Origin: a virus | Reading direction: 5' to 3' (one strand) | DNA length: 64,000 nucleotides | Virus record (IMG/VR): IMGVR_UViG_3300029258_001212 | Coordinates: 32,001 to 96,000 of that record | Part shown: positions 2-22,563 of the stretch, piece by piece | Layout: each line of letters starts with the position of its first letter | How positions within the stretch are numbered: position 1 is the first letter of the stretch | The notes under the pieces: model-generated | What the model was told of the DNA's origin: nothing | What the model saw: the letters and a program-made list of their open reading frames with translations, nothing else | The model's database searches: none | Program-made: the position numbers and the translations under genes

Positions 2-244
2 AAGCATCGCCAGATGGGCAACGCGGACACCTACACGCGCCGGGTGTCCGACAAGGAAAAGGCGATCAACTTCGTGACGGCGGCCCTCAAGGCCAACGGT
101 CTGGTGGGCTACCACAACAAGGTGGAGCAAGACGGGCTCACCGAGTATCACTTCGAGCACCGGCGCTACCGCAAGCTGGTGGCCACGCTCGAGGACTGGC
201 ACGACACCCCTGAGATGGTGCTGAGAGTACAGGACCTGGCGTAG
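2..244 (+). CDS. hypothetical protein (probably 5'-truncated by window edge)
   Basis: Frame is open from position 2 through ATG 14 to stop 244; abuts the next gene. Confidence 0.6.
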   Translation, partial: KHRQMGNADTYTRRVSDKEKAINFVTAALKANGLVGYHNKVEQDGLTEYHFEHRRYRKLVATLEDWHDTPEMVLRVQDLA

Positions 245-245: not shown

Positions 246-608
246 ATGAGCTGGTTTCTCGAGACATACCGCGAGCTCTCTGGCCTGATGGAGGCCACGG
301 CGTTCCGCGGCCTGAGCAAGGCAGAGCTCAAGGAGCTCATGGCCGAGCTCAAGTCCAAGTTCGGTCCGCTCCGGGCCAAGTATTGGACCACACCGAAGCA
401 CGCCACCGGACAGGTAACCCTGAAGCCCTACAGGCGGGACCAGGACGCCTGGGGCGAAGACCTGGACCGATGGGTGCGCCTGGTGGACCATCTCATCGCC
501 TGGGGCGCATTCAGCCCCACGGTGAGCCTCGAGAAGCAACGCGGCGAGCCTGGCGTGTGGGGTAACCAGTTCCCCCTCGCTGGATTGACGTTCTATAGGA
601 GAGCCTGA
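246..608 (+). CDS. hypothetical protein; candidate internal head (cargo) protein
   Basis: Leader MSWFLETYRELSGLME|A followed by a basic domain; TGATG coupling to next gene. Confidence 0.7.
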   Translation: MSWFLETYRELSGLMEATAFRGLSKAELKELMAELKSKFGPLRAKYWTTPKHATGQVTLKPYRRDQDAWGEDLDRWVRLVDHLIAWGAFSPTVSLEKQRGEPGVWGNQFPLAGLTFYRRA

Positions 609-1519
609 TGCGGAAAAATCATCCCTATCGTGCCACCATGCTGGCCATCAGCCGGCGGATGCAGCGCAGCGGCTACAGCGTGGCCTACACGAAGCATGGG
701 GACCATGAGCTCGGGGTGCCGGACCCACCGGCCGGGGCGGCGTGGATCTCGTTCACCGAGAGCGAGGACTGCCAGGGCTTTGCCCATGCCCTCGGGTTGC
801 TCGGGCTCGAGGAGTCCGTGAGCAAAAGCGGCCGGACATGCTTCGAGCTCCCGGACGGCGGCGCCGCGTGCGTGGTCGAGTCCGGTGACGGTACAGGGTA
901 TCTGTACCTGAGCGAGCTGGGCCCGGTGGAGGAGACCAGGGCGGCCAAGCTGGGCACCCTCCTAGAGACCATCCGCGCGCCGCGCGTCAGCGAGCCAGAT
1001 CCGCTCACCGAGGCCCGCGCGAGCCGGCCAGGGATGACCCAATTCCGCGATCTGACCCTCCGCAAAAAGGTGGTGGACCAGATCATGAAGGCCGTCATGC
1101 AGGACATTCCGATCATCCTCACCGGCCAGCCCGGGTCCGGGCGGATCATGATCGCCCGACGTATTGCCCAGATGGTGAAGGGGCCCCTCCGCGCTCCGCA
1201 CTACACGGTGAGCATGAAGGGCCTGACCGGGACGGTGCGGAACGGCCGTTACGTGGAAGGCGATCTCACCATGGCCAACCAGGGGGTGCTCCTGTTGGAC
1301 GAGGGGGCGGAGATGCGGCGGCCGGCCCTCGAGGCCATCGGCCAGGCGGTGCGCTTGAAGCAGGTGCAGCTCCCTGGGATGCAGGAGCCCCGCCAGGCGG
1401 ACTTCCACCTGGTGATGACGGCTCCGGATGCCTCCGGGGCCAAGCGCGCATTGAAGTTCATGGGGCTCACCAAGGTGGCCACCATTCACATTGCCAAGGG
1501 TGACTTGGCGGTCAAGTAG
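608..1519 (+). CDS. two-domain protein with C-terminal ComM/YifB (Mg-chelatase-like) AAA+ fragment
   Basis: ILTGQPGSGRIM (degenerate Walker A), RAPHYTVS, GDLTMANQGVLLLDE resemble ComM RAPHHTAS...GEISLAHRGVLFLDE. Confidence 0.7.
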   Translation: MRKNHPYRATMLAISRRMQRSGYSVAYTKHGDHELGVPDPPAGAAWISFTESEDCQGFAHALGLLGLEESVSKSGRTCFELPDGGAACVVESGDGTGYLYLSELGPVEETRAAKLGTLLETIRAPRVSEPDPLTEARASRPGMTQFRDLTLRKKVVDQIMKAVMQDIPIILTGQPGSGRIMIARRIAQMVKGPLRAPHYTVSMKGLTGTVRNGRYVEGDLTMANQGVLLLDEGAEMRRPALEAIGQAVRLKQVQLPGMQEPRQADFHLVMTAPDASGAKRALKFMGLTKVATIHIAKGDLAVK

Positions 1520-1531
1520 CAGGAGAACACG

Positions 1532-2155
1532 ATGAGCATCAGAACCCAGAAGCTGGCCCGGCTACTCGAGCAGATCCGCGGCGGCTCGGACGAGCCCCTG
1601 GACGAGACCATGTACGCCATCGGGTCCGGCGGTCTCCGCAAGCTCGGCGGGATGACCATCTTCCCGAACCAGGTGTATTTCATGGGCGCCTCGAGCTCGC
1701 CCAGTGGCATTTTCGTGACCCGGGTGACGGACGATGCGGTGACCTACAAACAGCTCTATTCGATGGGCAAGGAGCAGCGCATTCAGCGCCCCATCGCGGA
1801 CGACTTGGTTCGCCAGGGCACCGAGACCTGGCTCAAGTCCGGTTACCAGAAGTACCAGCCGGAGCGAGCTCGCAAGCTCAAGGCTCTCCTGGCGGGCAAG
1901 AAGCAGCCCCCGGAGAAAGAGGAGGACTACGTGCGGTGGCGCGTGGAGGTGAAGGCGGTGAACCCGCCCACCGGCAAGATGACCAGGGAGACGGATCCCT
2001 GGTATCGCGCGGAGGAGTACGGCAACGTCGGCTCGCGCGAGGACCCGAAGCACGGCACCGTCTACGAGATCACCAGCGTGACCGGGAAGGCTCTCAAGGA
2101 GCTTCGCAAGGACAAAGCATTCAAGGTGCTCAAAGCCACCCGCGAGAAACGGTAG
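1532..2155 (+). CDS. hypothetical protein; candidate internal head (cargo) protein
   Basis: SD AGGAG; leader KLARLLEQIRGGSDEPLDE|T. Confidence 0.75.
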   Translation: MSIRTQKLARLLEQIRGGSDEPLDETMYAIGSGGLRKLGGMTIFPNQVYFMGASSSPSGIFVTRVTDDAVTYKQLYSMGKEQRIQRPIADDLVRQGTETWLKSGYQKYQPERARKLKALLAGKKQPPEKEEDYVRWRVEVKAVNPPTGKMTRETDPWYRAEEYGNVGSREDPKHGTVYEITSVTGKALKELRKDKAFKVLKATREKR

Positions 2156-2164
2156 GAGGACACG

Positions 2165-2824
2165 ATGACCCCGACCCAGTACATGCTCCCCGTCCCTTAC
2201 GAGACCATCGAAGTGGACGGCCAGGAGTGGGAGGTGGTGACCGCGGGAGCGGATGCCAAGTCCTACGTGGTGAGCCTCAAGAAGCCCGGCAAGGGTGGCA
2301 ACCTCTACTACCTCGAGCTGGACCTGGAGAGCGGGGAGCCGAAGGGGTCCCCGCGCAAGATTGGCAACATCGAAATGCTCGAGGGTGATGCCCTTGGTGG
2401 GCTCCTCGGGCAGCTCCGCGAGGAGTCCGGTTTGGCGGAGGCGCGCCCACGCCTTGCCGATCAGAGATCGGTGGTCAAGATCGGCCGCTCCGGGAAATCC
2501 TACAGCTACTTCTACCAGGGTTCCACGGCGGGGCGCTGGGATGAGCTCGAGGGGCTGGACGCCCAGGAGGTGTTTCGCAAGACGCTGGCCGTTCTCAAGA
2601 TGTACCCGCAGACCACGGTGCTCCTGCCCAACAGGTGGAGCTTCGGGCGGCGATCTGAAGCTGTGCGGAGCCAGCGCCTCCCCTTTGTGCTCCTGGCGAA
2701 GCAGGGGCAGGAGGTGGACGCCACCGACAGCCCAAAGGACTTCTGGACCGAATACGGGATGCAGCTCCTACGCGGCCAAGTGAAGCTCAAGCCGCGCGAG
2801 ACGCGCCCGGCGCCGGGGTGGTAG
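2165..2824 (+). CDS. hypothetical two-domain protein; candidate cargo protein
   Basis: SD AGGAGG; internal linker LGGLLGQLREESGLAE|A. Confidence 0.75.
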   Translation: MTPTQYMLPVPYETIEVDGQEWEVVTAGADAKSYVVSLKKPGKGGNLYYLELDLESGEPKGSPRKIGNIEMLEGDALGGLLGQLREESGLAEARPRLADQRSVVKIGRSGKSYSYFYQGSTAGRWDELEGLDAQEVFRKTLAVLKMYPQTTVLLPNRWSFGRRSEAVRSQRLPFVLLAKQGQEVDATDSPKDFWTEYGMQLLRGQVKLKPRETRPAPGW

Positions 2825-2826
2825 GG

Positions 2827-3726
2827 ATGAACCTCGAGGCGATCCAGGGGCTCCTCATGGAGCTCAGGTCCCAGGTGAGCCAGATCGGGCTCGACTTCAC
2901 TGGTGCGGCAGAGCGAAAGCGCGCCAGGCGCACCCGCACGCGCGTGCGACGTGTGCCCAACCCACGGAAGCCCCGGCGCCCGTCTCCGGCCCGGGCCGAA
3001 CCAGTGCCCCTCGAGCCCCCGCCAGAGCCAGCTACCCCACGGGTCAAGCTGGCTGACTTCCGGTTGCCACCTACGCGCAAGGAGGCCCACACCGGCGAGC
3101 TCCTGGGGCGCTGTATCGACTGCAAGCGCAAGCTGGCCAAGACGGCCGGCAAGGGCACGAAGTGGTGTCCACGGTGCAACAAGCTCCACCAGCAAAGCAT
3201 CCCGGTAGACCTGGGCAGCGGGGAGCGCAAGGTCAAGAAGCGGACCAGGTGCCCCACGTGCGGCGGTGTGAAGCGCAAGACGGACTACCAGTGCCAGAAG
3301 TGTTTTCAGGCCAGGCATACCCGGTTCGCCCAGATCGAACACATCGTCCAGGCGATCCGTGAGCTCGGCAGTCTGATCCTCGAGGCCAATGCCCAGCGGC
3401 GCGACCCGTGGGAGCTCATGCCGATCCTGGACCAGTGGCTCAAGGACAAGGGATGGCGCCGCAACACGAAGGCCCCTCACTGGGTGAAACGGGCCTGGTA
3501 TAAACCGGTCTACCGCGAGGCCAAGGGAGACCAGTGGGCGAACCTTCGGAGCGCCCTCCGCAAGCTCGCCCCGAAGCTGGGCGGCAAGTACATCGAACAG
3601 CCGGCGCTGGCGGACGAGGAGGACACCCTCCTGGTGACCGTGCCGGGCTACTTCACCATCACGGCCCAGGTGCCCAACGTCCAGTTCGGCGTGGCCAAGC
3701 TGTCCGTGACGACGCGCAAGAGGTGA
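2827..3726 (+). CDS. basic zinc-finger protein
   Basis: Four CxxC pairs (CIDC, CPRC, CPTC, CQKC) and an R/P-rich N-terminal region. Confidence 0.7.
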   Translation: MNLEAIQGLLMELRSQVSQIGLDFTGAAERKRARRTRTRVRRVPNPRKPRRPSPARAEPVPLEPPPEPATPRVKLADFRLPPTRKEAHTGELLGRCIDCKRKLAKTAGKGTKWCPRCNKLHQQSIPVDLGSGERKVKKRTRCPTCGGVKRKTDYQCQKCFQARHTRFAQIEHIVQAIRELGSLILEANAQRRDPWELMPILDQWLKDKGWRRNTKAPHWVKRAWYKPVYREAKGDQWANLRSALRKLAPKLGGKYIEQPALADEEDTLLVTVPGYFTITAQVPNVQFGVAKLSVTTRKR

Positions 3727-3730
3727 CAGG

Positions 3731-5983
3731 ATGAAAACGCTGGACAAGATCGCTCGCAACGACAAGACGGGGTTCATGAAGTGGTGGGGCGAGGTTGCCG
3801 GCCTACTGAACGGCACCATGGGCGCCAATCCGGGCTACTCCAAGATCAAGATGAGCGACACCATCGGGGTCAACGTGCCCACCGGTGTGATCTACGTTTC
3901 GCCCATGCGTAGCGGGAGCGACTTCCGCGCGGAGTCCTGGATCGACAGCGAGACCGAACAAGGACACAACGCCTTCAAGTGGCGTTCCAAGGGGCTCACT
4001 CCTCGCAAGGTGGCAGCCGACATTCAACGAAAGTGGGGAAAGCATCTCTGGGAGAACACGGACGAGCAACGGATGGGTGCCATCATGGGCGTGGTACTCG
4101 AGGAGTCGGACAATATTTTGTTCCACGCGGGGCTCCTCGGGGAGCGCCAGAAGCGGCCGGGGACGGGTGACTTCCCGGACGAGTCCAAGGTGCGTCAGGG
4201 TTCCTTCAAGATCGGCCAGGACTTCATGAAGCTGGTGAAGCAGGAGAAGCTCGACGGGCCTCACATGCTTCTGTTCAGGGAGGTGCGGGACCACATCAAC
4301 AAGATCCCCAGGGAGAAGCTCCCGGAGATCTGGGGCCTGGACAACATCCCGGATGCCCAGGACGAGATCGCCCGAGCTCCACGCAAGGCGTTCCAGGCGT
4401 TCCTGCGAAACGTCCACAAGGTGGACCGCAAGCTCGCCGGGTACATCCGGCGCATCGCGGACAACGTACCGCTGGTCTGGTACATGATCATGCAGAGGAT
4501 CAGCGGCAAGGACATGGCGGACATCATCCTGAACCGCTACTTCACAACCAAGAATTACTACGAGCCGTCGCAGCGTGTGAAGATGCGCGACAAGCGGCGC
4601 CGTAAGGCAAGCAAGATGCCCTCCGGCAGCCAGCCCGGACTGTTTCCCGAGGGGCAGGAGCTGGACGAGGGCATTATGAAAAAGCACGCGGGCCTCTACA
4701 AGGCGCCGGACCGGGGAAGCTCGCAGAGCTATGTGCTGGTGAAGCGTGGTTCCGAGGGCTATCTGAAAAAGTGGGCCGAGCGCCAAGGACTCGTGTTCCA
4801 CGGCGGCCACGGCCTGAGCGGGGAAAAGGGTTACTTCGAGGACCCGAACACCGGGAGCTACTACGTGCTGGGCACGGGCAACAAGCGCAGCCCGTTCGCC
4901 GCGAACGAGGATCAGGACTCCCTCGGTGAGCTCCTCGGTGAGCTCGAGGAGGCCAAGGGCAAGTGCGGCCGGAAGCCTCGAGGCGGTGGTGTCCAGGACG
5001 GCAAGGGCCCGCATGGGGCCGGGCGCGGGCGCGGGCGGATGGAGCTCGAGGACCAGGAGCTCGGGGAGGCGGCCAGCCCCGAGCAGCTCCACCAAGCCAA
5101 GATGATGATCATCAAGATGCTGGACCAGGCGGTCCGCAAGGCCATCGGTGGCAGCGTCAAGGGCTTCACCGGTGACAAGGGCGGTGCCGTCATGGGCCGG
5201 TGGGTCACGAAGTCCAAGCTCGGGGAGCACACAATGATCGTTCGCATCCCGCCCAGGATGACCGAATTCAGTGTGTCCACTTACACGAAGCACAAGAACG
5301 CCAACATCAAACCCAAGGTGCTGGACGAGACCATGGTGGACATGCGGAAGGTGTGGAAGGGGGACAAGAAGTACGATTGGCGCCCCATCACAGATCTGTT
5401 CAAGCAAGAGATCGCCACCGGCGGCAACCGCAACGTCGTGTCCGTGGAGGACCAGGACAACCTCGGTGAGCTCCTGGGCGAGCTCCGCCAGGCGTCCGGG
5501 CTCGAGGACCTGGACGAGGCGGCGCGCCCCAAGCTGATCAAGGGTGACACGGTGCCCAAGGACCTGGCGGCCCTGTGGCCAGTGCTCCGGCGGTTCGGCT
5601 TCAAGCGCCCCAAGCTCAAGCGGACGGTGGAGTACGAGGGCACGCCTCACCAGTACACCATGGTTATGCCGGCCAGCGGGATCTGGGAGCGCAGCGGGAG
5701 CCGCAAGAAGTCCGCGTTCACGTCCAAGGAACGCTGGGAACTCTCCAAGGCGATCAAGGAGTGGGCCGCGAAGCACGGATGGACCCACAAGATGGGTCCG
5801 CGGGGGTTCCACGGCAATGAAACGGACACCTTTGCGAAGATGCAGCCCAAGCTCCCGACCCACAAGGTGCCCAACGAAGCGCACCTCACCATGCGTACTT
5901 CCGGGCGCCTCAAGAGCGGTTACGCCCCCGGCGAGGACGTGCTCCAGAACGTCTACTTCAATCTCAGCTACGCCACCAGATAG
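3731..5983 (+). CDS. 750-aa modular polyprotein-like protein; candidate internal head protein
   Basis: Basic domains separated by repeated acidic linkers EDQD(S/N)LGELLGEL...LxE. Confidence 0.8.
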   Translation: MKTLDKIARNDKTGFMKWWGEVAGLLNGTMGANPGYSKIKMSDTIGVNVPTGVIYVSPMRSGSDFRAESWIDSETEQGHNAFKWRSKGLTPRKVAADIQRKWGKHLWENTDEQRMGAIMGVVLEESDNILFHAGLLGERQKRPGTGDFPDESKVRQGSFKIGQDFMKLVKQEKLDGPHMLLFREVRDHINKIPREKLPEIWGLDNIPDAQDEIARAPRKAFQAFLRNVHKVDRKLAGYIRRIADNVPLVWYMIMQRISGKDMADIILNRYFTTKNYYEPSQRVKMRDKRRRKASKMPSGSQPGLFPEGQELDEGIMKKHAGLYKAPDRGSSQSYVLVKRGSEGYLKKWAERQGLVFHGGHGLSGEKGYFEDPNTGSYYVLGTGNKRSPFAANEDQDSLGELLGELEEAKGKCGRKPRGGGVQDGKGPHGAGRGRGRMELEDQELGEAASPEQLHQAKMMIIKMLDQAVRKAIGGSVKGFTGDKGGAVMGRWVTKSKLGEHTMIVRIPPRMTEFSVSTYTKHKNANIKPKVLDETMVDMRKVWKGDKKYDWRPITDLFKQEIATGGNRNVVSVEDQDNLGELLGELRQASGLEDLDEAARPKLIKGDTVPKDLAALWPVLRRFGFKRPKLKRTVEYEGTPHQYTMVMPASGIWERSGSRKKSAFTSKERWELSKAIKEWAAKHGWTHKMGPRGFHGNETDTFAKMQPKLPTHKVPNEAHLTMRTSGRLKSGYAPGEDVLQNVYFNLSYATR

Positions 5984-6092
5984 CACTCCTCTGAGGCATA
6001 AGCCCTTGACAGGGCTTGTATCCCCTCCATATTTCGGGCACGATAAGGGTAGTTAAGGGCAAGCAAGCGAAAGCGGCCCGACGAGGTGTACC

Positions 6093-6356
6093 ATGAGCTA
6101 CGCGGCGCAGTTGAAAGAGGAGGTTCGGATGCGGGCGGACGTGCCCACTGTCCGGCCGGCGGCCGGCGAGGACCGCGAGAGTGCCGTCTCGGCCCTCCGC
6201 GCCCTTGGGGCCCAGGCCACCCAGCTCGCAACTCAGCTCGAGCGAGGCCAGCTCTCCGAGGCCACGCTGGACGGCGTGTGGGAGCACATCAACGGTGCCA
6301 CCAGGGCGATGGTGGAGGCCACCCGTGCGGCCTTCGATGCCCAGCGGCGCAAGTAG
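6093..6356 (+). CDS. small helical hypothetical protein
   Basis: SD GAGGT before ATG; genome-typical codon usage. Confidence 0.65.
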   Translation: MSYAAQLKEEVRMRADVPTVRPAAGEDRESAVSALRALGAQATQLATQLERGQLSEATLDGVWEHINGATRAMVEATRAAFDAQRRK

Positions 6357-6366
6357 CACCTCAACC

Positions 6367-6435
6367 TTGGCACGGCTGTTGCTTCTTCTTAATTAACCTT
6401 ATCTCTCTCTGTTAGAGGAGAAGAGTCTTGAGGGT
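6367..6435 (+). promoter_or_regulatory. dispersed repeat copy 1: sigma54-type promoter + TTAATTAA + dyad
   Basis: TTGGCACGGCTGTTGCT matches the TGGCACG-N4-TTGC consensus; downstream ~50 bp conserved in six copies. Confidence 0.8.
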
Positions 6436-6474
6436 TTGATTTGCGGGCCGTGGTGGCCCGGGGAGATTGGAGCC

Positions 6475-6738
6475 ATGAAACAAGATCGGAAACCGAAGAT
6501 GATCGGGTGGGTGTTCCTGGTGTTCGGGGGCATGTTCCTGTTGGGGACGGTGCTGTTCGGAATCATGGACCGCACCATCATGGACAACATCGCTGCGGCC
6601 GTGTGCGCGTGCGGGATGGTGTTGTCGGTGGGGTTCTGGGCGCACGTGTGGGTGGCGCGCCAGCGGCTCCGCCAGAGCGAGCTCCTGGAGATCCGGCTGC
6701 AACAGCTCGGTGAGCACTGGAAGGCGAGCGCCCGGTAG
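6475..6738 (+). CDS. small two-TM membrane protein
   Basis: Two hydrophobic segments; SD GGAG. Confidence 0.7.
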   Translation: MKQDRKPKMIGWVFLVFGGMFLLGTVLFGIMDRTIMDNIAAAVCACGMVLSVGFWAHVWVARQRLRQSELLEIRLQQLGEHWKASAR

Positions 6739-6803
6739 TGCTAGGATAGGGGCGCGAATCCAAGCAAGCCCCGGCCATCGTGCCGGCGAACAAGGAGGCA
6801 ACG

Positions 6804-7241
6804 ATGGATCGGCTAGACGCATTGCTCCAGGAGGAGCGGGGGCACCAGGGCCTGGTGGACCTTCCGGCCATTGGTGGTCCGGTGGTGGACGAGGGGGCAG
6901 ACCGGCACGCAGTCCATGAGCTGGAGCTCTATATCGACAACACTCACCAGCTCTACAAGGACAAGTGGGAAAACTTCTTCTCGAGTCTCACGCGCAAGGT
7001 GGCGGCCGGGAAGTATGATCGCAAGCGGGCGCTCAAGATGATGGGCTACCTGGTGGACCGCGCGGCCAAGGAGTACGCCAAGGAGTTCGGGGGCACTTGG
7101 AATCAGATCTTCTCGGTGCCCACCCGCAAGGCCGTGGCGGCGTCACAGGTGGAGGAGTTCGAAGATGTGGTGAAGGACTCTCCGGAGGACTTGGCCAAGT
7201 GGGTCCCCAAGAAGTACGCGAAGAACAAGCTCAAGATCTGA
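6804..7241 (+). CDS. conserved phage hypothetical domain (ELELYIDN...GKYD...AAKEYAKEFG) behind an acidic leader
   Basis: SD AAGGAGG; leader MDRLDALLQEE...VVDE|G. Confidence 0.75.
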   Translation: MDRLDALLQEERGHQGLVDLPAIGGPVVDEGADRHAVHELELYIDNTHQLYKDKWENFFSSLTRKVAAGKYDRKRALKMMGYLVDRAAKEYAKEFGGTWNQIFSVPTRKAVAASQVEEFEDVVKDSPEDLAKWVPKKYAKNKLKI

Positions 7242-7581: not shown

Positions 7582-7619
7582 CAAGCGTGGCCCGGGGCTG
7601 GGCCACCAGGAGGGAGCCG

Positions 7620-7895
7620 ATGGCGAGCTCGTTTCGCGTTGGCGAAGCAGATCTGAATTCGTTGGCCAGGTTGGTATTCGAGAGCCCAACTCACTCCAGG
7701 CGCGTGTACGCGAAGCAAGGCGATGAGCTCAAGTACATCGAACGCAATGGGCGCGGAGGCCCGCGCGTGGGCGCGTGTACGGCGGAGGAGTTCCGGCTGT
7801 GGTGCTCGAGGCGCCAGGTGCGAAGCCGGCCAGCCACCAGGCGCGAGACGGCGCGGGACTGGAAGATCATCCGGGCGATGCCCGGCGAACCATGA
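7620..7895 (+). CDS. hypothetical protein
   Basis: SD AGGAGG/GGAG upstream of ATG 7620. Confidence 0.55.
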   Translation: MASSFRVGEADLNSLARLVFESPTHSRRVYAKQGDELKYIERNGRGGPRVGACTAEEFRLWCSRRQVRSRPATRRETARDWKIIRAMPGEP

Positions 7896-7926
7896 ACGGC
7901 CCCGAGGGGGCCAGGAGGAGTCCAAG

Positions 7927-8541
7927 ATGAAACGGATGATGCGAGTGCTCCCGGCAGTGCTGGCGGTGATGCTGGTGACCGGATGCGCGGACAAGTTCTT
8001 CGCGGCCAAGGTGGCCGTCCAGTCGGGCCGGGCGGCCCTGAGCATGGCGAACATTGGCCTGACCACGGCGGATAAGGCAAAGCAGGATGCGTGCAAGATC
8101 CCGATATGCGAAAAGGTGGACAAGCCGGGGACGGTGAAGTACCGAGCCTGCATGGGGCAGGACCACAGCGCGGATCCGACCTGGGTGAGCTGCTATGCCA
8201 AGTTTAAGCACTTCATGACGGTCACGTGGCCCCAAGCCGAGAAGACGGCCAACGCCGGGTTCACCACTGCGGAGGCGAGTATCACCTTGGCGGAGGCCCA
8301 GAAGTCAGGTCTCCCCTTGGACGTGCTACCCGTGGTGAAGGCCAGCGCCTGTTTCGTGGCCCAGGCCCTCGAGTTCCTACCCGAGAAAGCGAAAAAGACC
8401 GTTCAGATGTTCCTGGACATGATGAAGGCGTTTGGCTGCCAGGCGCCCCCGGCCCCGGCGGCAGCTCCGCCGGCCCCGGCGCCAAGACCCCCGGCGGCCC
8501 CTCCGGCAACCGATTCACGTCCAGCCCCCGCGCGCCCGTGA
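7927..8541 (+). CDS. predicted lipoprotein
   Basis: MKRMMRVLPAVLAVMLVTG|C signal peptide with lipobox; SD AGGAGGAG; Pro/Ala-rich tail. Confidence 0.8.
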   Translation: MKRMMRVLPAVLAVMLVTGCADKFFAAKVAVQSGRAALSMANIGLTTADKAKQDACKIPICEKVDKPGTVKYRACMGQDHSADPTWVSCYAKFKHFMTVTWPQAEKTANAGFTTAEASITLAEAQKSGLPLDVLPVVKASACFVAQALEFLPEKAKKTVQMFLDMMKAFGCQAPPAPAAAPPAPAPRPPAAPPATDSRPAPARP

Positions 8542-8774
8542 CTGCGGCGCGGGATCCCTTCGATCTGGTGTTCCCCCTGGCGGGCCAGGAGGAGGAGCCA
8601 GAGGAGCTGGTGTGGCCCCAGGCGCCTCGGAATTGCCCCACCTGTGGAAGCGGTAGGCTTCGCTCTGGTGAGGACGGACAGGGGCGCTACTGGCGGTGCC
8701 TGACGTGCAAGCGGACGGGCGCCATCGAACCCCGCTCAGAGCAGCCGCGTCGGTATCGGATCCGCAAGCGATAG
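8538..8774 (+). CDS. zinc-ribbon protein
   Basis: CPTC...CLTC; GTGA overlap with the upstream stop. Confidence 0.55.
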   Translation: MTAARDPFDLVFPLAGQEEEPEELVWPQAPRNCPTCGSGRLRSGEDGQGRYWRCLTCKRTGAIEPRSEQPRRYRIRKR

Positions 8775-8823
8775 ATTTCTCACGCGATCCCGGCTAGTAT
8801 CTTGGGGTGAAAGCGACACCAGC

Positions 8824-8976
8824 ATGGCTCGCATCAGTGGAATACTGTGCCGGATCTTCGGCCATTCGTGGTACACGGCCCGGGGGCAGAAGTTCCGATA
8901 TTGCCGGAGGTGTCGGCGCGTTCAGACAAGATCCCAAGCCAGCGATGAGTGGCAATGGATGAAGCAGTACCCATGA
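8824..8976 (+). CDS. small Cys/His protein, DUF1660-like (not in ORF track)
   Basis: Translated by hand: MARISGILCRIFGHSWYTARGQKFRYCRRCRRVQ...; LCxxFGHxW...CxRC pattern. Confidence 0.6.
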   Translation: MARISGILCRIFGHSWYTARGQKFRYCRRCRRVQTRSQASDEWQWMKQYP

Positions 8977-9083
8977 TGCCCGTAGCGCCTAACTTCGTGT
9001 CCGGGGCCAGCCTTGGCTTCGTGATCGGTTTCATGCTCGGGCTTCTGGTGGGATTCAATGCAGGCCAGGGGCCGCGAGGATGA
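8973..9083 (+). CDS. small single-TM peptide (not in ORF track)
   Basis: MMPVAPNFVSGASLGFVIGFMLGLLVGFNAGQGPRG; ATGA overlap; GxxxG repeats. Confidence 0.5.
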   Translation: MMPVAPNFVSGASLGFVIGFMLGLLVGFNAGQGPRG

Positions 9084-9091: not shown

Positions 9092-10804
9092 ATGGCGAAC
9101 CTGGGCAATCGGATCGTCAACTACGTTCGGGGGATTTTCAGCCGCGACACCGAGGAGCGGATTGAGGCAGCCGGAGGGGTGAACGTCGGGGACTTCCCGA
9201 TGGATCCATTCGGAAACCTGCAAGTCCAGCACATCGGGCAGAACGTGGTCCAGGACGCCCTGATGGTGTCCAATGCTCTGATGGCGCGGATGATCGACTA
9301 CGAGCGCATGGATGAGTATCCGGACTGCAATGCCGCGTTGAACATCTACGCGGACGATGCAACGGTTCCAGATCCGAGCACAAACCATGTGATGTGGTCC
9401 GTGTGTCGGGACGAGCAGATCCGCGGGATGCTCGACACCATGCTACACAGGCGGCTCCACGTGGACGATGAAGCGTGGGAAGCGATCCGGATGCTGGTGA
9501 AGTACGGAAACGACTTCGAGGAGATCCTGGTCAACTCCCGCGGTGTCCAAGGACTCAACTTTCTTCCAGCGCCTACGTGCCGACGCCTCGAGGGGAAACA
9601 GGGCGAGCTCAAGGGCTTCGTGCAGAGCTTCAGGGGCAACTTCACGGTGAACCCAGGCCAGCTCCAGGGGATGCAGTTCCGCCAGGGCGTGGGGCGTGAG
9701 CCACGCAGCGGCGTGGCCCTCTTCGAGCCGTGGCGTGTGGTTCACATGCGGCTCCGGAGCAACCGGCGCCGGGCGATGTACGGGATCGGGATCCTCGAGG
9801 CGTGCAGGTGGGTCTGGAAGCGCCTCATTCTCCTCGAGGACGCGGCGCTGATCAGCCGGCTGGCTCGAGCTCCCAGTCGCTTCGCGTTCTACGTGGACGT
9901 GGGCAAGCTGTCCACCGAGAACGCGGAGAAGTACCTGGACGAGATGCGCCGGAAGCTCAAGAAAAAGAAGTTCGTGAACCCACGGACCGGCCAGCTCGAT
10001 CTACGATTCAACCCTCTGTCCACGGATGAGGATTTCTTCCTCCCGGTGCGCGACAGCCGGGAGGTGGTCCGAGCGGACGTGCTCAACACGCCCACCTGGA
10101 CGGGCGTGGAAGATGTGGCCTACTTCCGCGACAAGCTCCACGCCAGTCTGATGATCCCGAAGGCGTACCTGGGCTACGATGAGAATCTCCCGAGCCGCGC
10201 TACGCTCTCCCAGGAGGACGTGCGGTTCGCCCGGACGGTGCTCCGGGTCCAGCGCGAGTACAAGGCGGGGATGCGGAAGGTGGCCAAGGTACACCTCGCC
10301 AGTCAGGGGATCGATCCGGCCTATGTGGACTTCGATCTGGCCATGACGGTGCCGAGCTCCATCTTCGAGCTCGCACGCCTCGAGATCCAGAACACCCGAG
10401 CCACGTTCGCTGCCCAGATGGGTGAGCTCGTTTCGAAGCACTGGCTTCTCGCCAACGTGTTCAACTTCTCGGACGCTGAGATCGAAAAAGTGATGGTGCA
10501 GCGGCGCGAGGAGCTCACCGAGGAAATGAAGATCCAGCAAGGGCAATTCGAATCCAGGGCCCTCCCCGTCAGAAGCCCGAACCGAATGCTCACGGACAAC
10601 CGTTCCGCGCCAGCGCGCACGCGCGAGCTGTACGGCGTGGAGCGGGATCTGTTCGCAGGAAGCCGCGAAGCGGAGAAACGCCTCGAGGGACGACTGGACC
10701 AGATGCTCACCGAGAACAGGCGTTTCGGAATGCAGCTCGCGCAGATCCAATCCTTCCTGGGCGAGGTGCGCGGAGCCATTCGCACCTCCCAGATGCCTCG
10801 CTGA
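9092..10804 (+). CDS. portal protein, T4 gp20-like
   Basis: LILLEDAALISRLARAPSRFAFYVDVGKL, EDFFLPVR, EDVAYFRDKL, SQEDVRFARTVLRVQ. Confidence 0.93.
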   Translation: MANLGNRIVNYVRGIFSRDTEERIEAAGGVNVGDFPMDPFGNLQVQHIGQNVVQDALMVSNALMARMIDYERMDEYPDCNAALNIYADDATVPDPSTNHVMWSVCRDEQIRGMLDTMLHRRLHVDDEAWEAIRMLVKYGNDFEEILVNSRGVQGLNFLPAPTCRRLEGKQGELKGFVQSFRGNFTVNPGQLQGMQFRQGVGREPRSGVALFEPWRVVHMRLRSNRRRAMYGIGILEACRWVWKRLILLEDAALISRLARAPSRFAFYVDVGKLSTENAEKYLDEMRRKLKKKKFVNPRTGQLDLRFNPLSTDEDFFLPVRDSREVVRADVLNTPTWTGVEDVAYFRDKLHASLMIPKAYLGYDENLPSRATLSQEDVRFARTVLRVQREYKAGMRKVAKVHLASQGIDPAYVDFDLAMTVPSSIFELARLEIQNTRATFAAQMGELVSKHWLLANVFNFSDAEIEKVMVQRREELTEEMKIQQGQFESRALPVRSPNRMLTDNRSAPARTRELYGVERDLFAGSREAEKRLEGRLDQMLTENRRFGMQLAQIQSFLGEVRGAIRTSQMPR

Positions 10805-11014: not shown

Positions 11015-11947
11015 ATGAGCGGACTGATTCCGGCCAATGTGCTCGCAGGAGTGACCCGCGGATCTCTCGAGGATCACGTGGGTCGAGTGATCCAGGCGGT
11101 AGAGGACAGCCACGCAAGATTCGAATCCGAGACCGGGCAGGACCTGAACGTGATTGCGACGTTCAATGAGCATGTGGTGGTGGCCAACGGGGACGGCAAC
11201 GTCTACCGCGCCAGCTACCAGCCGGCCGGTGACGGGTTTTCCATCACGAAGGTGGAGCCAGTGGAGCTCCCGGTGATTCGCGGGCGCCAGGATGGCAGGC
11301 GCTTCGTGGAGCGCACTGCATCGGAGGCGGTGGAGGCTCTGGTGGCCGGGGACTTCTCATCGGCCCGTGATCAGATCCGCACCTTGATCGAAGCGGCTCC
11401 CATGGTGGCCCCGGCGGACCAGCTCCGCGAGCTCCGCGAGCACCTCTCCGGGATGTTCGATCCGGATCGCCCATGGCGCGCGTTCTACGCGGAGGACCAT
11501 GAGCGCATTCAGCGCCTGGTGTGGGGCACCACCGGCTCCGCCCTTTCCTACACCCCTCAACCCCGCTACCAGCCCCTGTACCGTGACGGTCTCCTCGAGG
11601 ACGCCAGCGAGTACGCTTCCGCCGTGGAGGCGGACGTGGGCGTGATGGCCGAGCGCCTGGAGAAGCTCTGGGAGCAGACCACCGAGGCGTGGGGCGAGTA
11701 CCAATCGACTGGTGCCTTCAAGGCTTCGGGCATCGCCCGGCCGGCCGAGCATTTCGAGACCATCGCTTCCGATTACCTGGTGGAGCTCAAAGCTCTCTGC
11801 CACCTGATGAGCGAGGCGGCCAAGGACAACGATCCGGATACTGTGGCGGCGCGCGGCTGGCTGTTTGACCAGGTGGCGCGGCAGTATCCCCAGGTGGAAG
11901 TGACGGCCCGGCTAGTGCGTCGGGTGGCCACTGAATTTGTGAGCTAA
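11015..11947 (+). CDS. head morphogenesis-associated hypothetical protein
   Basis: Lies between portal and core/protease genes; helical and acidic. Confidence 0.7.
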   Translation: MSGLIPANVLAGVTRGSLEDHVGRVIQAVEDSHARFESETGQDLNVIATFNEHVVVANGDGNVYRASYQPAGDGFSITKVEPVELPVIRGRQDGRRFVERTASEAVEALVAGDFSSARDQIRTLIEAAPMVAPADQLRELREHLSGMFDPDRPWRAFYAEDHERIQRLVWGTTGSALSYTPQPRYQPLYRDGLLEDASEYASAVEADVGVMAERLEKLWEQTTEAWGEYQSTGAFKASGIARPAEHFETIASDYLVELKALCHLMSEAAKDNDPDTVAARGWLFDQVARQYPQVEVTARLVRRVATEFVS

Positions 11948-11992: not shown

Positions 11993-13066
11993 ATGCAAAA
12001 CCGACCGATCCACACCCTGGCCGAGGACTTCCAGTACCTGGGTCTTCCGGTGGACGAGACGGACCACCTGGACGAGATGGACGCCCCGCCCGCGCCCGAC
12101 AAGAAGCAGGCGGCCATGCAGAAGAAGATGAACGTGGCCAAGACGAAGATGGCGGCGCTTCAGAAGAAAGCCCTCAAGGCCGGTGTGCCGGCGGAGGACG
12201 TGGAGCTGGCCATGCTGTCCGTCACCGAGGACGAGCTGGACGAGCTCCCCGAGGACATGGAGACGCTGGACGAGTTCAAGATCGTCAAGTTCTTCAAGAA
12301 CCTCCTCAAGAAAGGCAAGAAGAAGCCGTCCCGCGCCGAGCGGCTCAAGAAGGCCAAAAAGGCGAAGCAGTACCGCAAGGGCCGGGGCCGGTCCCAAGCC
12401 AAGCGGTATCGCAAGAGCTCCCGCTTCAAGAAGCTCAAGAAGCTCTACGCCAAGGCCAAGAAGATGGGCAAAAAGGCCGTGAAGGGCGCCCGGCGCAGCT
12501 TCGCGTCCATGCTCGGCTCGAGCACCGAGTACCCAGGTGGCCAGGAGCTGTCCGAGCTCGGGTCCATCATCAACGCCCTCGAGCACACCGAGGACAGCTC
12601 CCAGTACGCGGCCGGCTACGCCAACATCGCCAAGGCGGCAACGGCCACGGCCGGCGGTCTCCGCGAGCTGGACGAGAGCTACGTGGACATTCACTTCCCG
12701 CTGGACGAGGCGGCCGACTACTGCGAGCTCATCGCCGCGGAGGCCCGGGAGTTCCTGGGCGCCCTCGAGGAGCGCGACGGCACCATCAGCGTGGAGGACC
12801 AGCGGCTCCTGGACGAGCACCTCGCTGAGCTCCACGCGGAAGCCCTCGCCATGGCCAACTACGCCGACGACACCAACATCCTGGTGGCGCTGGACGAGGG
12901 GCGGATGCCCTTCGAGCAGGAGGTGGTGGAGAGCGAGGGTCTGTTCGGCGCGGAGCTGGACGAGGACGAGGACCTGTTCTTCGAGGACGAGGACGAGGAC
13001 GAGGAAGATCCCTTCGAGGGGATCCGCGGCGAAGTCGCCCTCATGTTCGGTATCCGTCACCGCTAG
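11993..13066 (+). CDS. prohead core / scaffold-like protein
   Basis: Very basic block (T4 gp68-like character) flanked by acidic regions with many LxE sites; directly precedes the protease. Confidence 0.65.
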   Translation: MQNRPIHTLAEDFQYLGLPVDETDHLDEMDAPPAPDKKQAAMQKKMNVAKTKMAALQKKALKAGVPAEDVELAMLSVTEDELDELPEDMETLDEFKIVKFFKNLLKKGKKKPSRAERLKKAKKAKQYRKGRGRSQAKRYRKSSRFKKLKKLYAKAKKMGKKAVKGARRSFASMLGSSTEYPGGQELSELGSIINALEHTEDSSQYAAGYANIAKAATATAGGLRELDESYVDIHFPLDEAADYCELIAAEAREFLGALEERDGTISVEDQRLLDEHLAELHAEALAMANYADDTNILVALDEGRMPFEQEVVESEGLFGAELDEDEDLFFEDEDEDEEDPFEGIRGEVALMFGIRHR

Positions 13067-13075: not shown

Positions 13076-14644
13076 GTGGACCAGGTACTCACAGACTGCC
13101 AGCTATTCCGATTCGAGCTGGTGGAGGACCGGGAGGGCTCCGGGGGCATGGTAGCCCGCGGGCCCTTTGCCCGGGCAGGAGTGCCGACGGCCAACGGCCG
13201 GGTGTACTCCGGCAAGCTCTGGGAGCGAGAGCTGTCCCGGCTCCAGGACAAGATCAAGACGAGCAGCTTGTTCGGACTCCTGGACCACCCACAGGACGGC
13301 AAGACCACGCTCAAGGAAGCGTCTCACCTGATCACCAAGCTGACCTTCGATGGCACCAACGTCATCGGGGAGATGCGAGTGCTCGACACCCCCAACGGGC
13401 GCATCCTGAAGTCCATCATCGAAAGCGGAGGCGTTGTGGGCGTCTCCAGCCGTGGCGTGGGGACCACCCGCAAGAACCAACAGGGCATGAGCGAGGTTCA
13501 AGACGACTATCGGCTCCTGTCCTTTGACGCCGTGGCGGACCCGGCGAACGCTACGTCTTGGCCGAAGTTCACCACCGAGGCCGACGATCCGGAGGAGAAC
13601 ATGCCCCTCACCCTCGAGCAACTGAAGGAAACGCACCCCGAGCTGGTGCAGATGATCCAGGCGGAGGCCGTGGCAGACGTGGAGCCGGCCCCGGCGGCGC
13701 CCGACACCGAGGACATGCGCGAGAAGCTCTTGTCCATGGTGCAGGAGCAGCGCGCGGAGGTGGAGAGCCAGGTGCGGAGCGAGCTCCTGAGCGACCCGTC
13801 CGTGGGCGGCTCGCGGCTCGCCCTCGAGGGGGTGATCAAGCTCCTCCGGCCCCTGATGCTCACCGAGGATCAGCACGCCGTCCTGGAGAACAAGGAAGAG
13901 GAGCTGGCGGACACCCGGGCCAAGCTCGAGGAGGCACAGGAGCAGATCTCCCAGCTCGAGGCGGCCGTGGAGGAGCTGGTGGGCATCACCGAGGAGCTCT
14001 CCTGTCGCTACTACGCCGAGCGCGCCCTGGGTACACTCGAGGAGGTGGACACGAAGGAGCACATCCTCGGGATGCTCGGGGACCTGTCCCGCTTCGGATC
14101 CATCGAAGAGTTCAAGGAGGCCCTCGCTTCCACCGTGGAGTCGGTGCTCACCGAGACCACGCGCCAGGAGGAGGAGAACGCAGAGCTCGCGGCCATGAAG
14201 GCCGAGAACGAGAAGCTCCGCAAGGCCCTGGGCAAGTCTGTGGAGCTCGGCAAGGCCCTGGGCACCAAGGCGTACCTCGAGCAGCGCCTGAACGCTCATC
14301 CCCAGGCCAGCGCCATCCGCGAGCAAGCGGAGAACGTGCGTCTGGAGGGCAAGCGTGCCGTGGATCGCCTGATCGAATCCTTCGAGGCGGCCAACCCCTT
14401 GTCGGACGAGTTCGATCAGATCTCGTCCGAGTTCGGCGGCGGCCTGTCCCACCTCACCGAGGGGGACGAGGATCCGCAGGACTTCACCGAGGGGTTCACG
14501 GGCGCCATGCACATGCCGGAGGGTGGCGGCGGCCAGGTGCCCCTCACCGAGGACGGCTACGATCTGTTCGGTGTGGGCCAGAAAGAGCTCCGGAAGCTCT
14601 GCGGCCTGTCCGAGGGACGCGACGACGACAAGGGGCCCTACTAG
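13076..14644 (+). CDS. prohead protease (T4 gp21-like) fused to coiled-coil scaffold
   Basis: ANGRVY, GLLDHP, ASHLI, LDTPNGRIL, GVSSRGVG, FDAVADPA; long acidic coiled-coil C-terminus. Confidence 0.92.
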   Translation: MDQVLTDCQLFRFELVEDREGSGGMVARGPFARAGVPTANGRVYSGKLWERELSRLQDKIKTSSLFGLLDHPQDGKTTLKEASHLITKLTFDGTNVIGEMRVLDTPNGRILKSIIESGGVVGVSSRGVGTTRKNQQGMSEVQDDYRLLSFDAVADPANATSWPKFTTEADDPEENMPLTLEQLKETHPELVQMIQAEAVADVEPAPAAPDTEDMREKLLSMVQEQRAEVESQVRSELLSDPSVGGSRLALEGVIKLLRPLMLTEDQHAVLENKEEELADTRAKLEEAQEQISQLEAAVEELVGITEELSCRYYAERALGTLEEVDTKEHILGMLGDLSRFGSIEEFKEALASTVESVLTETTRQEEENAELAAMKAENEKLRKALGKSVELGKALGTKAYLEQRLNAHPQASAIREQAENVRLEGKRAVDRLIESFEAANPLSDEFDQISSEFGGGLSHLTEGDEDPQDFTEGFTGAMHMPEGGGGQVPLTEDGYDLFGVGQKELRKLCGLSEGRDDDKGPY

Positions 14645-14705: not shown

Positions 14706-16205
14706 ATGCAGGCAAGAGACATGGTGAAGGCCCCGGGCGGCTTCGGAGGCCAGGACCGGGTGGACGAGATCCTCAAGCAGAAGTGGGCGTGGCTCCTCGA
14801 CGGAATCGAGGAGGACTGGGATCGGCGCAACCTGGCGCGCCTCTTCGAGAACCAGATGAACCACCTCCGCGACGAGGTGCGGAAGTCCGGGATCATCAGC
14901 GAAGCCACCACCAAGGCGGCCGTGCCGGACTACGTGAAGTTCATCTTCCCGCTGGTCCGCCGCGTCTGGGCGAGCCTGTTCGCCAACGGCCTGGTGAGCG
15001 TCCAGCCGATGAGCGCCCCCATCGGCGGGATCTTCTTCTTCGAGTACAAGTACGGCACCACCAAGGGATCGGTCACCGCGGGTCAGAACATGATCCAGAA
15101 CTTCGACCGGTTCTACAGCTCGGAGCGCGTGTACCACGAGCTGGTGGACACCGGAGACGGTGCCACGGCCAACTACACCGGGACCCTGGACTGGTTCCCG
15201 GTGGTGCCGAAGGACAACTTCGGCCGCGCGGGCCTCGAGTTCACCACGGTGGACGTGTCCGACAACGTGCTCCGGATCTACGATGCGGACGGATCCGGCA
15301 CCCTGGCCGGTGACACGGGCGGCGCGTCCACGGTCACCTACGCCAGCGGCGACTTCAACATCACGTTCTCCGCGAACGTGAAGAACCTCACCCCCATCTA
15401 CGCCAACTACTGGTTCAGCATGGAGGCGGCCAGTGCCAACGTGCCGGAGGTGAACGTCGAGATCTCCCTCGAGCCCGTCCAGGCGTGGAGCCGCAAGCTC
15501 AAGGCGCTGTGGAGCTCGGAGGCGGCCGACGACATGCGCGCCATGCTCGGGCTCGACATCGAATCCGAGCTGGTGGGCGGCCTGGCCAGCGAGATCGGGC
15601 TGGAGATCGACCGCGAGATCATCCAGGACCTGTACGTGGCGGCGGACGCCGGCACCAACAAGGACACCTTCGACGCGACGGTGCCCCCCGGCCGGAGCCC
15701 GGTGGAGCACTACTCCGGGATCCTCACCAAGCTGGACAAGATCGCCACGGAGATCCACACCCGCACCAAGCGCGGTCCGGGCAACTTCATCGTGTGCGCG
15801 CCCGACGTGTCCACGGTGATCTCGGCCCTGAGCCGCCACGGCGACTTCAAGGGCGTGTTCTCCCAGACCGATCCCGTCCAGGGCATCGGCACCGGCGGGC
15901 GCCCCGGCTTCCCGCTCCCGAACGCCCCGCAGGGCTACGGGATCTTCGAGGCCGGCACGCTCCAGAACCGCTGGCGCGTGATCGTGGATCCGTACTTCGA
16001 GTCGGGCAAGGCCGTGGTCGGGCTCAAGGGGAGCACCTTCCTCGACAGCGGCTACGCCTACGCCCCCTACGTGGGGCTCCAGATCACCAGCACCTGGCTG
16101 GATCCGGGCAACTTCCAGGCCCGCAAGGGCCTCCGGACCCGGTACGCCACGAAGCTGATGAACAGCAACTTCTACGGCGCCCTCGAGGTGAACAACACCC
16201 CGTAG
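14706..16205 (+). CDS. major capsid protein, T4 gp23-like
   Basis: FPLVRRV, VSVQPMSAP, SRKLKALWSSEAADD, EIGLEIDREII, YAYAPYV, KGLRTRYA; propeptide ends IISE|A. Confidence 0.95.
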   Translation: MQARDMVKAPGGFGGQDRVDEILKQKWAWLLDGIEEDWDRRNLARLFENQMNHLRDEVRKSGIISEATTKAAVPDYVKFIFPLVRRVWASLFANGLVSVQPMSAPIGGIFFFEYKYGTTKGSVTAGQNMIQNFDRFYSSERVYHELVDTGDGATANYTGTLDWFPVVPKDNFGRAGLEFTTVDVSDNVLRIYDADGSGTLAGDTGGASTVTYASGDFNITFSANVKNLTPIYANYWFSMEAASANVPEVNVEISLEPVQAWSRKLKALWSSEAADDMRAMLGLDIESELVGGLASEIGLEIDREIIQDLYVAADAGTNKDTFDATVPPGRSPVEHYSGILTKLDKIATEIHTRTKRGPGNFIVCAPDVSTVISALSRHGDFKGVFSQTDPVQGIGTGGRPGFPLPNAPQGYGIFEAGTLQNRWRVIVDPYFESGKAVVGLKGSTFLDSGYAYAPYVGLQITSTWLDPGNFQARKGLRTRYATKLMNSNFYGALEVNNTP

Positions 16206-20902: not shown

Positions 20903-21358
20903 ATGAACGACACCATTGACAGAATTCGCCAAGTGGGAGCTCTCACCGAGGAGGCCGAGAACCTGTTTGAGGGGCGCCCGAAGCCCGGCCCGATGTGCCG
21001 GAAGATCGTCAAGGGTCTCCTGGCGGCCGGCTTCACCAAGTCCAAGTCCCGGATGGGGATGGGCGCCACCGGCGCCACCTACACCAACCCCCAGGGGGAC
21101 ATTTTCTCCAAGGATGTGCAGGTGCCACAGGATCCGGTTTCGGTGCTCGGCGGCTCGCGTCCACAGGCGGACCCGAAGCGCGTCCAGGCGGCCGAGAAAA
21201 CCGTCCGGAAGATCGCCGGCCAGGTGGGCGTCACCGAGAAACAGAACATCGGCAACCGGGTGGCCCTGAGCGAGCCAGGCGGCCACCCCAAGGTCTGGTA
21301 TCACACCACGCCGGGCGGCACGTTCTACGTGGACGTGGACTACACCACCGACTACTAG
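20903..21358 (+). CDS. hypothetical protein; candidate cargo protein
   Basis: Leader TIDRIRQVGALTEEAENLFE|G, then a basic domain. Confidence 0.7.
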   Translation: MNDTIDRIRQVGALTEEAENLFEGRPKPGPMCRKIVKGLLAAGFTKSKSRMGMGATGATYTNPQGDIFSKDVQVPQDPVSVLGGSRPQADPKRVQAAEKTVRKIAGQVGVTEKQNIGNRVALSEPGGHPKVWYHTTPGGTFYVDVDYTTDY

Positions 21359-21360
21359 AC

Positions 21361-21428
21361 TTGGCACGGGTGTTGCTTCTGCTTAATTAACCTTATCTCT
21401 CCCTTTGGAGAGTAAGAGTCAAGAGGGT
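21361..21428 (+). promoter_or_regulatory. dispersed repeat copy 3 (sigma54 box)
   Basis: TTGGCACGGGTGTTGCTTCTGCTTAATTAACCTTATCTCTCC...GGAGAGTAAGAGTCAAGAGGGT. Confidence 0.8.
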
Positions 21429-21442
21429 CTCCGGAGGACAGA

Positions 21443-22147: not shown

Positions 22148-22560
22148 GCATCCGCGAGCTCTATGAGGACTTGTCCCACCAGCTCGAGGACGAGGGGGAG
22201 TGGGAGCTCTGGACGCACCCGGAGCCGGAGATCACCGGGGAGCCGTCCTGGGTGTTCGATGGTGGCAAGCGCCTGGTGCCCATCCGCGAGAAGAAAGACG
22301 CGGAGGGTAAACTGGACAGCAAGAACCCCCGTGGGATCCGCCGGTGCGTGGTGGACGTGTACCAGAAAGGCGAAAAGGGCAAGGAGGGCCTATCCCGAGC
22401 GTTCGCCATCTGCACGGCGGCCATGCAAAAGGCTGGACAGGTACGCAAGGGCTCCCGCAAGCTGACAAGGAAGGGAACCGGCCGCGCTACCTACTTCGCT
22501 CGCCAGGGTGACGCGGCTGACAAGGATGCGGAGTACGAGAAGATCGTGAAAGGTGTGTAG
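22144..22560 (+). CDS. hypothetical protein (RCVxxV...AFAICTA motif)
   Basis: ATGA overlap; acidic N-terminus and basic C-terminus. Confidence 0.7.
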   Translation: MSIRELYEDLSHQLEDEGEWELWTHPEPEITGEPSWVFDGGKRLVPIREKKDAEGKLDSKNPRGIRRCVVDVYQKGEKGKEGLSRAFAICTAAMQKAGQVRKGSRKLTRKGTGRATYFARQGDAADKDAEYEKIVKGV

Positions 22561-22563
22561 CCC

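Follow-up and report, generated by a model that had tools for sequence, protein, structure and literature searches.

A row of tagged genes upstream of the head module of an uncultured T4-like phage probably encodes an enlarged variant of the T4 internal-protein system

Proteins injected from a phage head act ahead of any phage gene expression. In T-even phages, the internal proteins (Ips) share only the leader that directs their packaging, and at least 10 Ip types are known (PMC12373910, PMC3012670, PMC9026906). The T4 proteins Ip1 to Ip3 are specific inhibitors of type IV restriction, each of which blocks a different GmrSD enzyme (PMC12373910), and the T4 leader, the capsid targeting sequence (CTS), reads MKTYQEFIAE (PMC8442874). 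Glutamate at the P1 position is the rule of the S77 family of prohead proteases, with sites of the form L/I-x-E in T4 and A/S/G-x-E in phiKZ and SPN3US (PMC9026906, PMC10052503). Here, we analyzed a 64,000-nt stretch of viral DNA (the window), which comprises bases 32,001-96,000 of the complete 153,540-bp IMG/VR virus record IMGVR_UViG_3300029258_001212 with direct terminal repeats. An earlier prediction made for this DNA (the original prediction) had proposed that otherwise unrelated proteins of the window carry a capsid-targeting-like leader that ends in a prohead-protease site. We find that such a tag, an amphipathic helix followed by a hydrophobic-x-Glu site, is shared by a row of genes at genome positions 21.2-39.2 kb. 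By analogy with T4, this row probably encodes internal head proteins and polyproteins that form an enlarged variant of the T4 internal-protein system. The principle is not new: T-even internal proteins have already been described as diverse and as sharing only a capsid targeting leader (PMC3012670, PMC9026906, PMC12373910). What is new is the bipartite and often internal form of the tag, the fusion of cassettes into polyproteins, and the size of the array.

The six examples on which the original prediction relied were all present in their open reading frames (ORFs), and the segment that they share proved to be real and stronger than had been claimed. The tag consists of an amphipathic helix, L-G-x-L-L-x-x-L-R, and then G-L-x-E. 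Genes upstream of the window gave its fuller form, in which h-x-x-h-h-x-x-h-R (where h is a hydrophobic residue) is followed by 2-3 residues, by [AS]-G-L-x-E, and then by [AS] and basic residues. The regular expression L-[GADS]-x-L-L-x-x-h-[REQK] matched 7 sites in 6 neighboring genes and none elsewhere among the 169 called genes (42,446 residues), and hidden Markov models (HMMs) derived from these sites brought in two further genes, both upstream. When the whole genome was scanned in six frames, all matches of at least 17.9 bits fell within genome positions 21,209-38,795 on the + strand, while the best match outside the row scored 8.3 bits. The row thus delimited holds about 16 tagged genes over 17.6 kb. 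It begins ~10.8 kb upstream of the window, which contains its 3' half with seven tagged genes (246-7241); the cluster that the original prediction had placed at 246-7241 is therefore tagged as proposed but is only part of the array.

A lack of enrichment of the motif relative to tail or non-virion proteins had been set beforehand as a refuting outcome. Using shuffles within each protein as the control, and comparing the row with the rest of the genome, we counted 42 occurrences of [LI]-x-E-[ASGT] in the row versus 12.7 expected (z 8.5), an approximately threefold overrepresentation, whereas the rest of the genome had 100 versus 81.5 expected (z 2.1). The narrower motif L-[DE]-E-[ASG] occurred 14 times in the row versus 0.9 expected (z 14). 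The motif is thus enriched relative to the other proteins of the genome, and this test did not refute the original prediction. BLASTP revealed that the row proteins are alike solely over tag segments of 13-50 residues. The conserved residues of these segments are encoded by differing synonymous codons among the copies, and the motif therefore acts at the protein level rather than as a DNA repeat. The predicted succession of an acidic leader and a basic domain was also borne out: the leaders are net acidic, the parts after the site carry a net charge of +5 to +35, and the median isoelectric point of the row proteins is 9.5, compared to 6.1 for the other proteins.

The exact helix is specific to the lineage, since a degenerate DNA scan of IMG/VR for D-x-L-G-E-L-L-G-E-L returned 35 stretches, with real in-frame copies in a close relative only. 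Sequence homology to the T4 CTS or Ip proteins was not found, as no row protein had a family-level PHROGs match, and tblastn against 50,697 GenBank phage records gave no match for genes 1532 and 3731 or for a 272-residue gene upstream of the window (genes are named by the window position at which they start). The genes of the row that lie in the window, together with the 3' end of the gene preceding them, are as follows.

14..244 (+), 3' end of a tagged gene for a 308-residue protein (genome 31318-32244), with the tag at residues 104-125 (helix and G-L-V-E|A) just upstream of the window
246..608 (+), basic protein of 120 residues whose 16-residue N-terminal leader is weak and ends in G-L-M-E|A (nt 246-293; tag score, 3 bits)
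608..1519 (+), 303-residue protein with an N-module (1-109), an internal tag (110-135; nt 935-1012, ending in P-L-T-E|A), and an AAA+ domain
1532..2155 (+), 207-residue protein with an N-terminal leader (1-25; nt 1532-1606, ending in L-D-E|T) and a 180-residue cargo domain
2165..2824 (+), 219-residue protein with an N-module (1-71), a tag (72-92; nt 2378-2440, ending in G-L-A-E|A), and a basic C-module
2827..3726 (+), 299-residue protein of isoelectric point 10.6, with an N-terminal tag-type helix, an Arg/Lys tract, and CxxC zinc-ribbon motifs
3731..5983 (+), 750-residue polyprotein with modules A (1-313) and B (314-407), a K/R/G spacer, and modules C (447-596) and D (597-750)
6093..6356 (+), 87-residue ORF within the row, without a tag
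6475..6738 (+), small membrane protein within the row, without a tag; start probably ATG 6475
6804..7241 (+), 145-residue protein with an N-terminal leader (nt 6804-6893) ending in V-D-E|G

Genes 246, 1532, 2827, and 6804, along with four genes upstream of the window, bear the tag at the N terminus; genes 608, 2165, and 3731, along with three upstream genes, bear it internally. Two gene starts were placed anew: ribosome-binding sites indicate ATG 6804 and ATG 2827, which puts the helix at the extreme N terminus in both proteins and adds 2827 to the genes with an N-terminal helix. The example at 246 was present, but it is the weakest of those proposed, having only the G-L-M-E|A end, and the gene is absent from the close relative. 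In the 750-residue protein (3731), tags are found at nt 4904-4951 and 5444-5518, and short Q-E-L-x-E junctions are found at residues 313 and 446.

Not all of the cargo is orphan, as had been supposed. Gene 608 has an AAA+ domain of ComM/ChlI-like type (PF01078, 7e-14; aligning to ComM, PDB 8RXD). Its Walker B motif L-L-L-D-E is present, and where the Walker A consensus is G-x-x-G-x-G-K-[ST], it reads G-S-G-R-I, with Lys changed to Arg and Thr to Ile, in the relative too; the domain would be either an inactive ATPase or an ATPase of unusual chemistry. A weak Sigma54_activat match, together with the presence of sigma-54 cassettes in the genome, had raised the possibility of a bacterial enhancer-binding protein, which we rejected because the alignment is of ComM/ChlI type and the G-A-F-T-G-A loop is missing. 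A polymorphic-toxin phosphatase domain matched the 308-residue protein upstream, but weakly and below threshold (17 bits versus a cutoff of 27; E 0.008). No row cargo shows a recognizable effector fold. Separately, an AT-rich intergenic cassette at 6367-6435 contains T-G-G-C-A-C, five bases, and T-T-G-C (a sigma-54 -24/-12 box), followed by T-T-A-A-T-T-A-A and an inverted repeat; it is oriented with the genes and lies just 5' of the small membrane-protein gene.

Can the tag be carried from one protein to another, as the term portable in the original prediction implies? Comparison with related phages revealed (near-)identical leaders before unrelated cargo, with breakpoints at the tag. In relative G001, the portal DNA is 95% identical and window positions 635-6876 are just 89% identical, and the two genomes differ outright 5' of 635 and in the cargo part of gene 6804. 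There, 28 of the 32 N-terminal residues agree, and what follows is unrelated. The cargo found at this place in G001 is 63% identical to the last module of P0003, a 658-residue polyprotein of a third phage, where it comes after another copy of the helix and G-L-E-E|A. P0003 itself has modules A and C in common with the 750-residue protein and is missing B, and the breakpoints are the two Q-E-L-x-E junctions. Relatives of gene 2165 retain the N-module and the tag at 67-83% identity, but past G-L-x-E|A-R no similarity is left.

Genes upstream of the window behaved in the same way. One carries an additional module that sits between two L-V-E|A sites. In another, the tag that is internal here matches the N-terminal leader of a shorter gene in the relative, and the N-module starts exactly where another phage's homolog starts after its own leader; fusion therefore lets one tag serve two modules. 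In the three related phages compared, cargo modules have been exchanged, added, or fused precisely at the tag.

The cargo of gene 1532, also taken for an orphan, led beyond this lineage. A HMMER search with it against 1.84 billion representative proteins returned 203 clusters at E<1e-3, and the family is known only from metagenomes. Among the best 149 relatives, 78 were stand-alone (≤230 residues) and 23 exceeded 500 residues, the longest having 3365 residues and at least 25 E-S-[VL]-D-E|A linkers. In 61% of 112 homologs, the end of an h-x-E motif fell between -4 and +3 residues relative to the projected start of the domain, versus 11% at random positions (p 1.6e-36). Pfam identified no family in the six longest of these relatives (845-3365 residues) or in the 750-residue protein of the row. 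An AlphaFold model of gene 1532 placed a helix at residues 4-16, a coil bearing the site at 17-27, and a folded domain from residue 28. The model was confident (predicted local distance difference test score, 94). A fold search with the cargo, as proposed along with the original prediction, gave no match in PDB or BFVD at E≤0.001. VIA-align of residues 134-207 found just a generic ferredoxin-like beta-alpha-beta match (Z≤6.3), which points to no function, and a search of the ESM Atlas gave no usable match. Complex prediction for the leader (residues 1-40) with the protease and the scaffold-like protein yielded a score of 0.12 (mark, 0.34), which speaks neither for nor against binding.

The same architecture is found in other S77 phages. 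A narrow HMM of the tag had no match in relatives with 42-50% portal identity, which have their own leader and linker consensus. In these phages, leader-bearing ORFs lie just upstream of the portal gene, and E-D-V-E-L-D-E|A/G linkers separate 8 modules in a giant ORF of 1092 residues and 18 in one of 1661 residues; two of the modules are homologous to N-modules of the row. The most extreme array that we found is on a 98-kb, S77-encoding contig (L058; IMGVR_UViG_3300001687_000013, positions 127-20478), where 31 of 50 consecutive small ORFs have a leader of ~12 residues of the type M-x-K-A-x-D-I-L-x-L-x-E, near the T4 CTS. On other IMG/VR contigs, M-x-L-R-K-R-x-Y-L-x-E stands on many genes amid neck and tail genes. 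The segment before the Glu thus differs by lineage and is common to many genes within one genome, a pattern that would be expected from a co-evolving docking partner. We find that comparable arrays with lineage-specific leaders, a further new element of this work, are common in S77 phages known only from metagenomes.

The protease that would act on such sites is encoded nearby. The window has a G+C content of 64%, with nearly all genes on the + strand, and the source phage belongs to a distant, uncultured T4-like lineage, because even the closest GenBank phages are only ~30-33% identical in the capsid protein. Genes for the portal, the S77 protease, and a gp23-type capsid protein lie directly downstream of the tagged row on the same strand.

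9092..10804 (+), portal protein of T4 gp20 type (PF07230, 1e-62)
11993..13066 (+), scaffold-like charged protein with three L-D-E sites (from its sequence)
13076..14644 (+), S77 prohead protease with a 350-residue helical C-terminal extension (PF03420, 5e-20; phrog_207, 2e-50)
14706..16205 (+), major capsid protein of gp23 type with the candidate maturation site I-S-E66|A67 (PF07068, 7e-69)

Residues 23-173 of the protease align to T4 gp21 (PDB 5JBL) with His and Ser retained, and the tag ends in the h-x-E of the S77 family, which agrees with the gp21-type cleavage rule that had been invoked. The L-T-E|G and L-T-E|D sites, attributed to the scaffold in the original prediction, are located instead in the C-terminal extension of the protease ORF. 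The candidate site assigned to the capsid propeptide was supported. Capsid residues 24-53 align to residues 10-43 of T4 gp23 (the F-E-N-Q region of the propeptide) and residues 65-117 to residues 80-132 (the T4 cut is 65|66), and I-S-E66|A67 is the sole h-x-E between these two blocks, that is, between the T4-homologous propeptide and the mature body. Its context, R-x-x-G-h-x-x-E, is tag-like.

Two further observations concern possible partners of the leaders. A 310-residue protein (11015-11947) between portal and scaffold belongs to no family, and its position and N-terminal sequence are kept in L010 and L014; it is a candidate component of the prohead core and might serve as the receptor of the leaders. 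The N termini of the scaffold-like proteins (11993-13066; L010:7431-8240), h-x-x-x-F-x-x-h-G-h-x-x-x-E, look like cargo leaders, which raises the possibility that the leaders imitate the segment by which the scaffold itself docks. Between the row and the portal gene, an internal Met in 7723-8541 begins a lipoprotein-type signal whose hydrophobic stretch terminates in G-C, and a proline-rich tail comes next; in PHROG, the product weakly matches an Rz-like spanin. A second frame that overlaps it (8226-8774) has a CxxC...CxxC zinc ribbon at its end, and gene calls in 7600-9000 are uncertain.

From these patterns, we infer docking, cleavage, encapsidation, ejection, and an action of the cargo as follows. 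Each cargo module would be joined to a short acidic amphipathic helix, a short flexible stretch, and then a hydrophobic-x-Glu site. By analogy with the T4 CTS, the helix would dock the precursor onto the assembling prohead core. The S77 prohead protease would then cut after the Glu and free the basic mature modules, which would remain associated with the packaged DNA and probably pass into the host alongside it. In fused cassettes, one internal tag could serve the modules on both sides, giving polyproteins arranged like beads on a string, and the conserved tag could double as a recombination junction for the exchange of cargo between phages.

Several observations weigh against an enlarged T4-type system. 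The tag is often internal in the window genes, whereas the T4 CTS, with its 10-19 residues, is strictly N-terminal. Gene 2827 has an I-G-L-D-F junction, shared with the gene at genome position 25874, where the Glu of an L-x-E site would be expected. Some L-[DE]-E-[AG] junctions overlap a Shine-Dalgarno-like GAGG and then ATG, so that translation across gene junctions may account for some of the motif count. Because the capsid protein's own site resembles the tag, the conserved part could also reflect recognition by the protease rather than an address. No cargo matched a known effector, anti-defense, or DNA-binding family. Finally, the large terminase gene (genome 140996-143059, outside the window) is ~50 kb from the portal gene across the record ends, whereas in relatives it lies 0.3-4 kb upstream of the portal gene. 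The row is thus not simply inside a contiguous packaging-head operon as it is in relatives.

The resemblance to the capsid site leads to the alternative that survives best, which we nevertheless regard as unlikely. The row proteins would be prohead core or scaffold-like components that condense DNA; the shared segment would be only an extended protease recognition site and linker, entry into the head would depend on the modules or on co-assembly with the scaffold, and the fragments would be mostly structural or expelled instead of being injected to act as effectors. Besides the R-x-x-G-h-x-x-E context that the capsid propeptide site has in common with the tag, L-[DE]-E sites are enriched in the scaffold and the protease tail as well; the uniformly basic cargo, with its K/R/G tracts and zinc ribbons, suits neutralization of DNA charge; and our searches yielded no effector fold. 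However, a part before the Glu that is specific to the lineage and shared within the genome is more readily explained by a co-evolving docking partner than by a universal protease rule, and the rapid turnover of cargo between phages whose portal DNA is 95% identical is atypical of structural core proteins. The two functions need not be opposed, as the T4 leader unites both (PMC9026906).

We consider a non-virion role distinctly improbable. The row proteins would then act in the cytoplasm, for example as early host-takeover polyproteins, their helix would be a signal for oligomerization, chaperone binding, or degradation, and another protease, or none, would process them. The distance of the terminase gene would fit this explanation, and so would the sigma-54-type promoter cassette within the row, which indicates that the row may not be one late operon. 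Yet the end of the tag follows the S77-specific rule, leader arrays of a comparable kind share contigs with S77 genes and adjoin portal, neck, and tail genes, and in the cargo family of gene 1532, the h-x-E lies exactly at the domain boundary in 61% of members. Least probable by far is a functionless remnant of recent tandem duplication (paralogy) or a functionless effect of chance composition. Window gene 2827 and the gene at genome 25874 do have the junction and a zinc-ribbon stretch in common, and a module of the relative resembles the N-module of gene 608, but for nearly all pairs the likeness stops at the tag, shuffle controls gave z values of 8.5-14, the conserved residues use differing synonymous codons, and in related phages the same tag precedes different cargo.

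If the row does encode an enlarged T4-type internal-protein system, a lineage-specific leader with h-x-E near an S77 protease gene would flag hundreds of candidate first-strike proteins, at present unannotated, in uncultured phages. Exchange of cassettes at the tag would explain how such repertoires diversify, and the leaders would provide natural address tags for loading foreign proteins into non-T4 capsids. More tentatively, S77 phages known only from metagenomes could share a general and hardly described system of capsid cargo. It would combine a lineage-specific address helix with a universal hydrophobic-x-Glu release site, deliver dozens of fast-evolving modules from arrays of up to ~30-50 small genes or from polyproteins of up to 3365 residues, use the tag as the shuffling junction, and constitute an injected arsenal with a logic like that of polymorphic toxins.

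Among known systems, the Dar proteins of phage P1 resemble the proposed role of the row, being internal head proteins that are loaded at assembly and injected against restriction; P1 loading, however, is hierarchical, via DarA/Hdf and others, with no shared cleavable leader (PMC9024508, PMC12810830). Polyvalent proteins (Iyer et al. 2017, PMC5512222) are, like those of the row, large and multimodular, with domain shuffling, predicted co-delivery with DNA, and proposed processing. They are defined by conflict domains (MuF, ART, zincin-like peptidase, and others) and have embedded peptidases (PMC5512222), whereas the linkers of the row fit a separate head protease. In phiKZ, 201phi2-1, and SPN3US, many head-internal proteins are cut after x-x-Glu, as in the rule seen here (PMC10052503, PMC5694885). 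The propeptides of these giant phages have 20-254 residues, sometimes with several cuts, and the C-terminal extension of the protease is itself cleaved (PMC10052503, PMC5694885); in SPN3US, ~80% of head proteins are uncut. Their sites are A/S/G-x-E, with no shared portable leader described, whereas in the row, Leu predominates at P3 and the site comes after a common helix.

The closest system is that of T4 Ip1, Ip2, Ip3, and Alt with gp21, which has, like the row, an S77 protease in a T4-type head module. The T4 Ips, too, are unrelated, basic, and nonconserved proteins with a short shared leader that has a hydrophobic i/i+3/i+4 pattern and an h-x-E end (PMC9026906), and their cargo likewise turns over between related phages. 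Compared to the T4 leader, to which it has no sequence homology, the tag of the row is longer and bipartite (a 9-residue helix, a spacer, and G-L-x-E), and it often stands internally, after modules of 70-390 residues, where it links modules into polyproteins. With ~16 tagged genes in 17.6 kb, the row also exceeds the three Ips and Alt of T4 and the ~10 Ip types found across the T-even phages.

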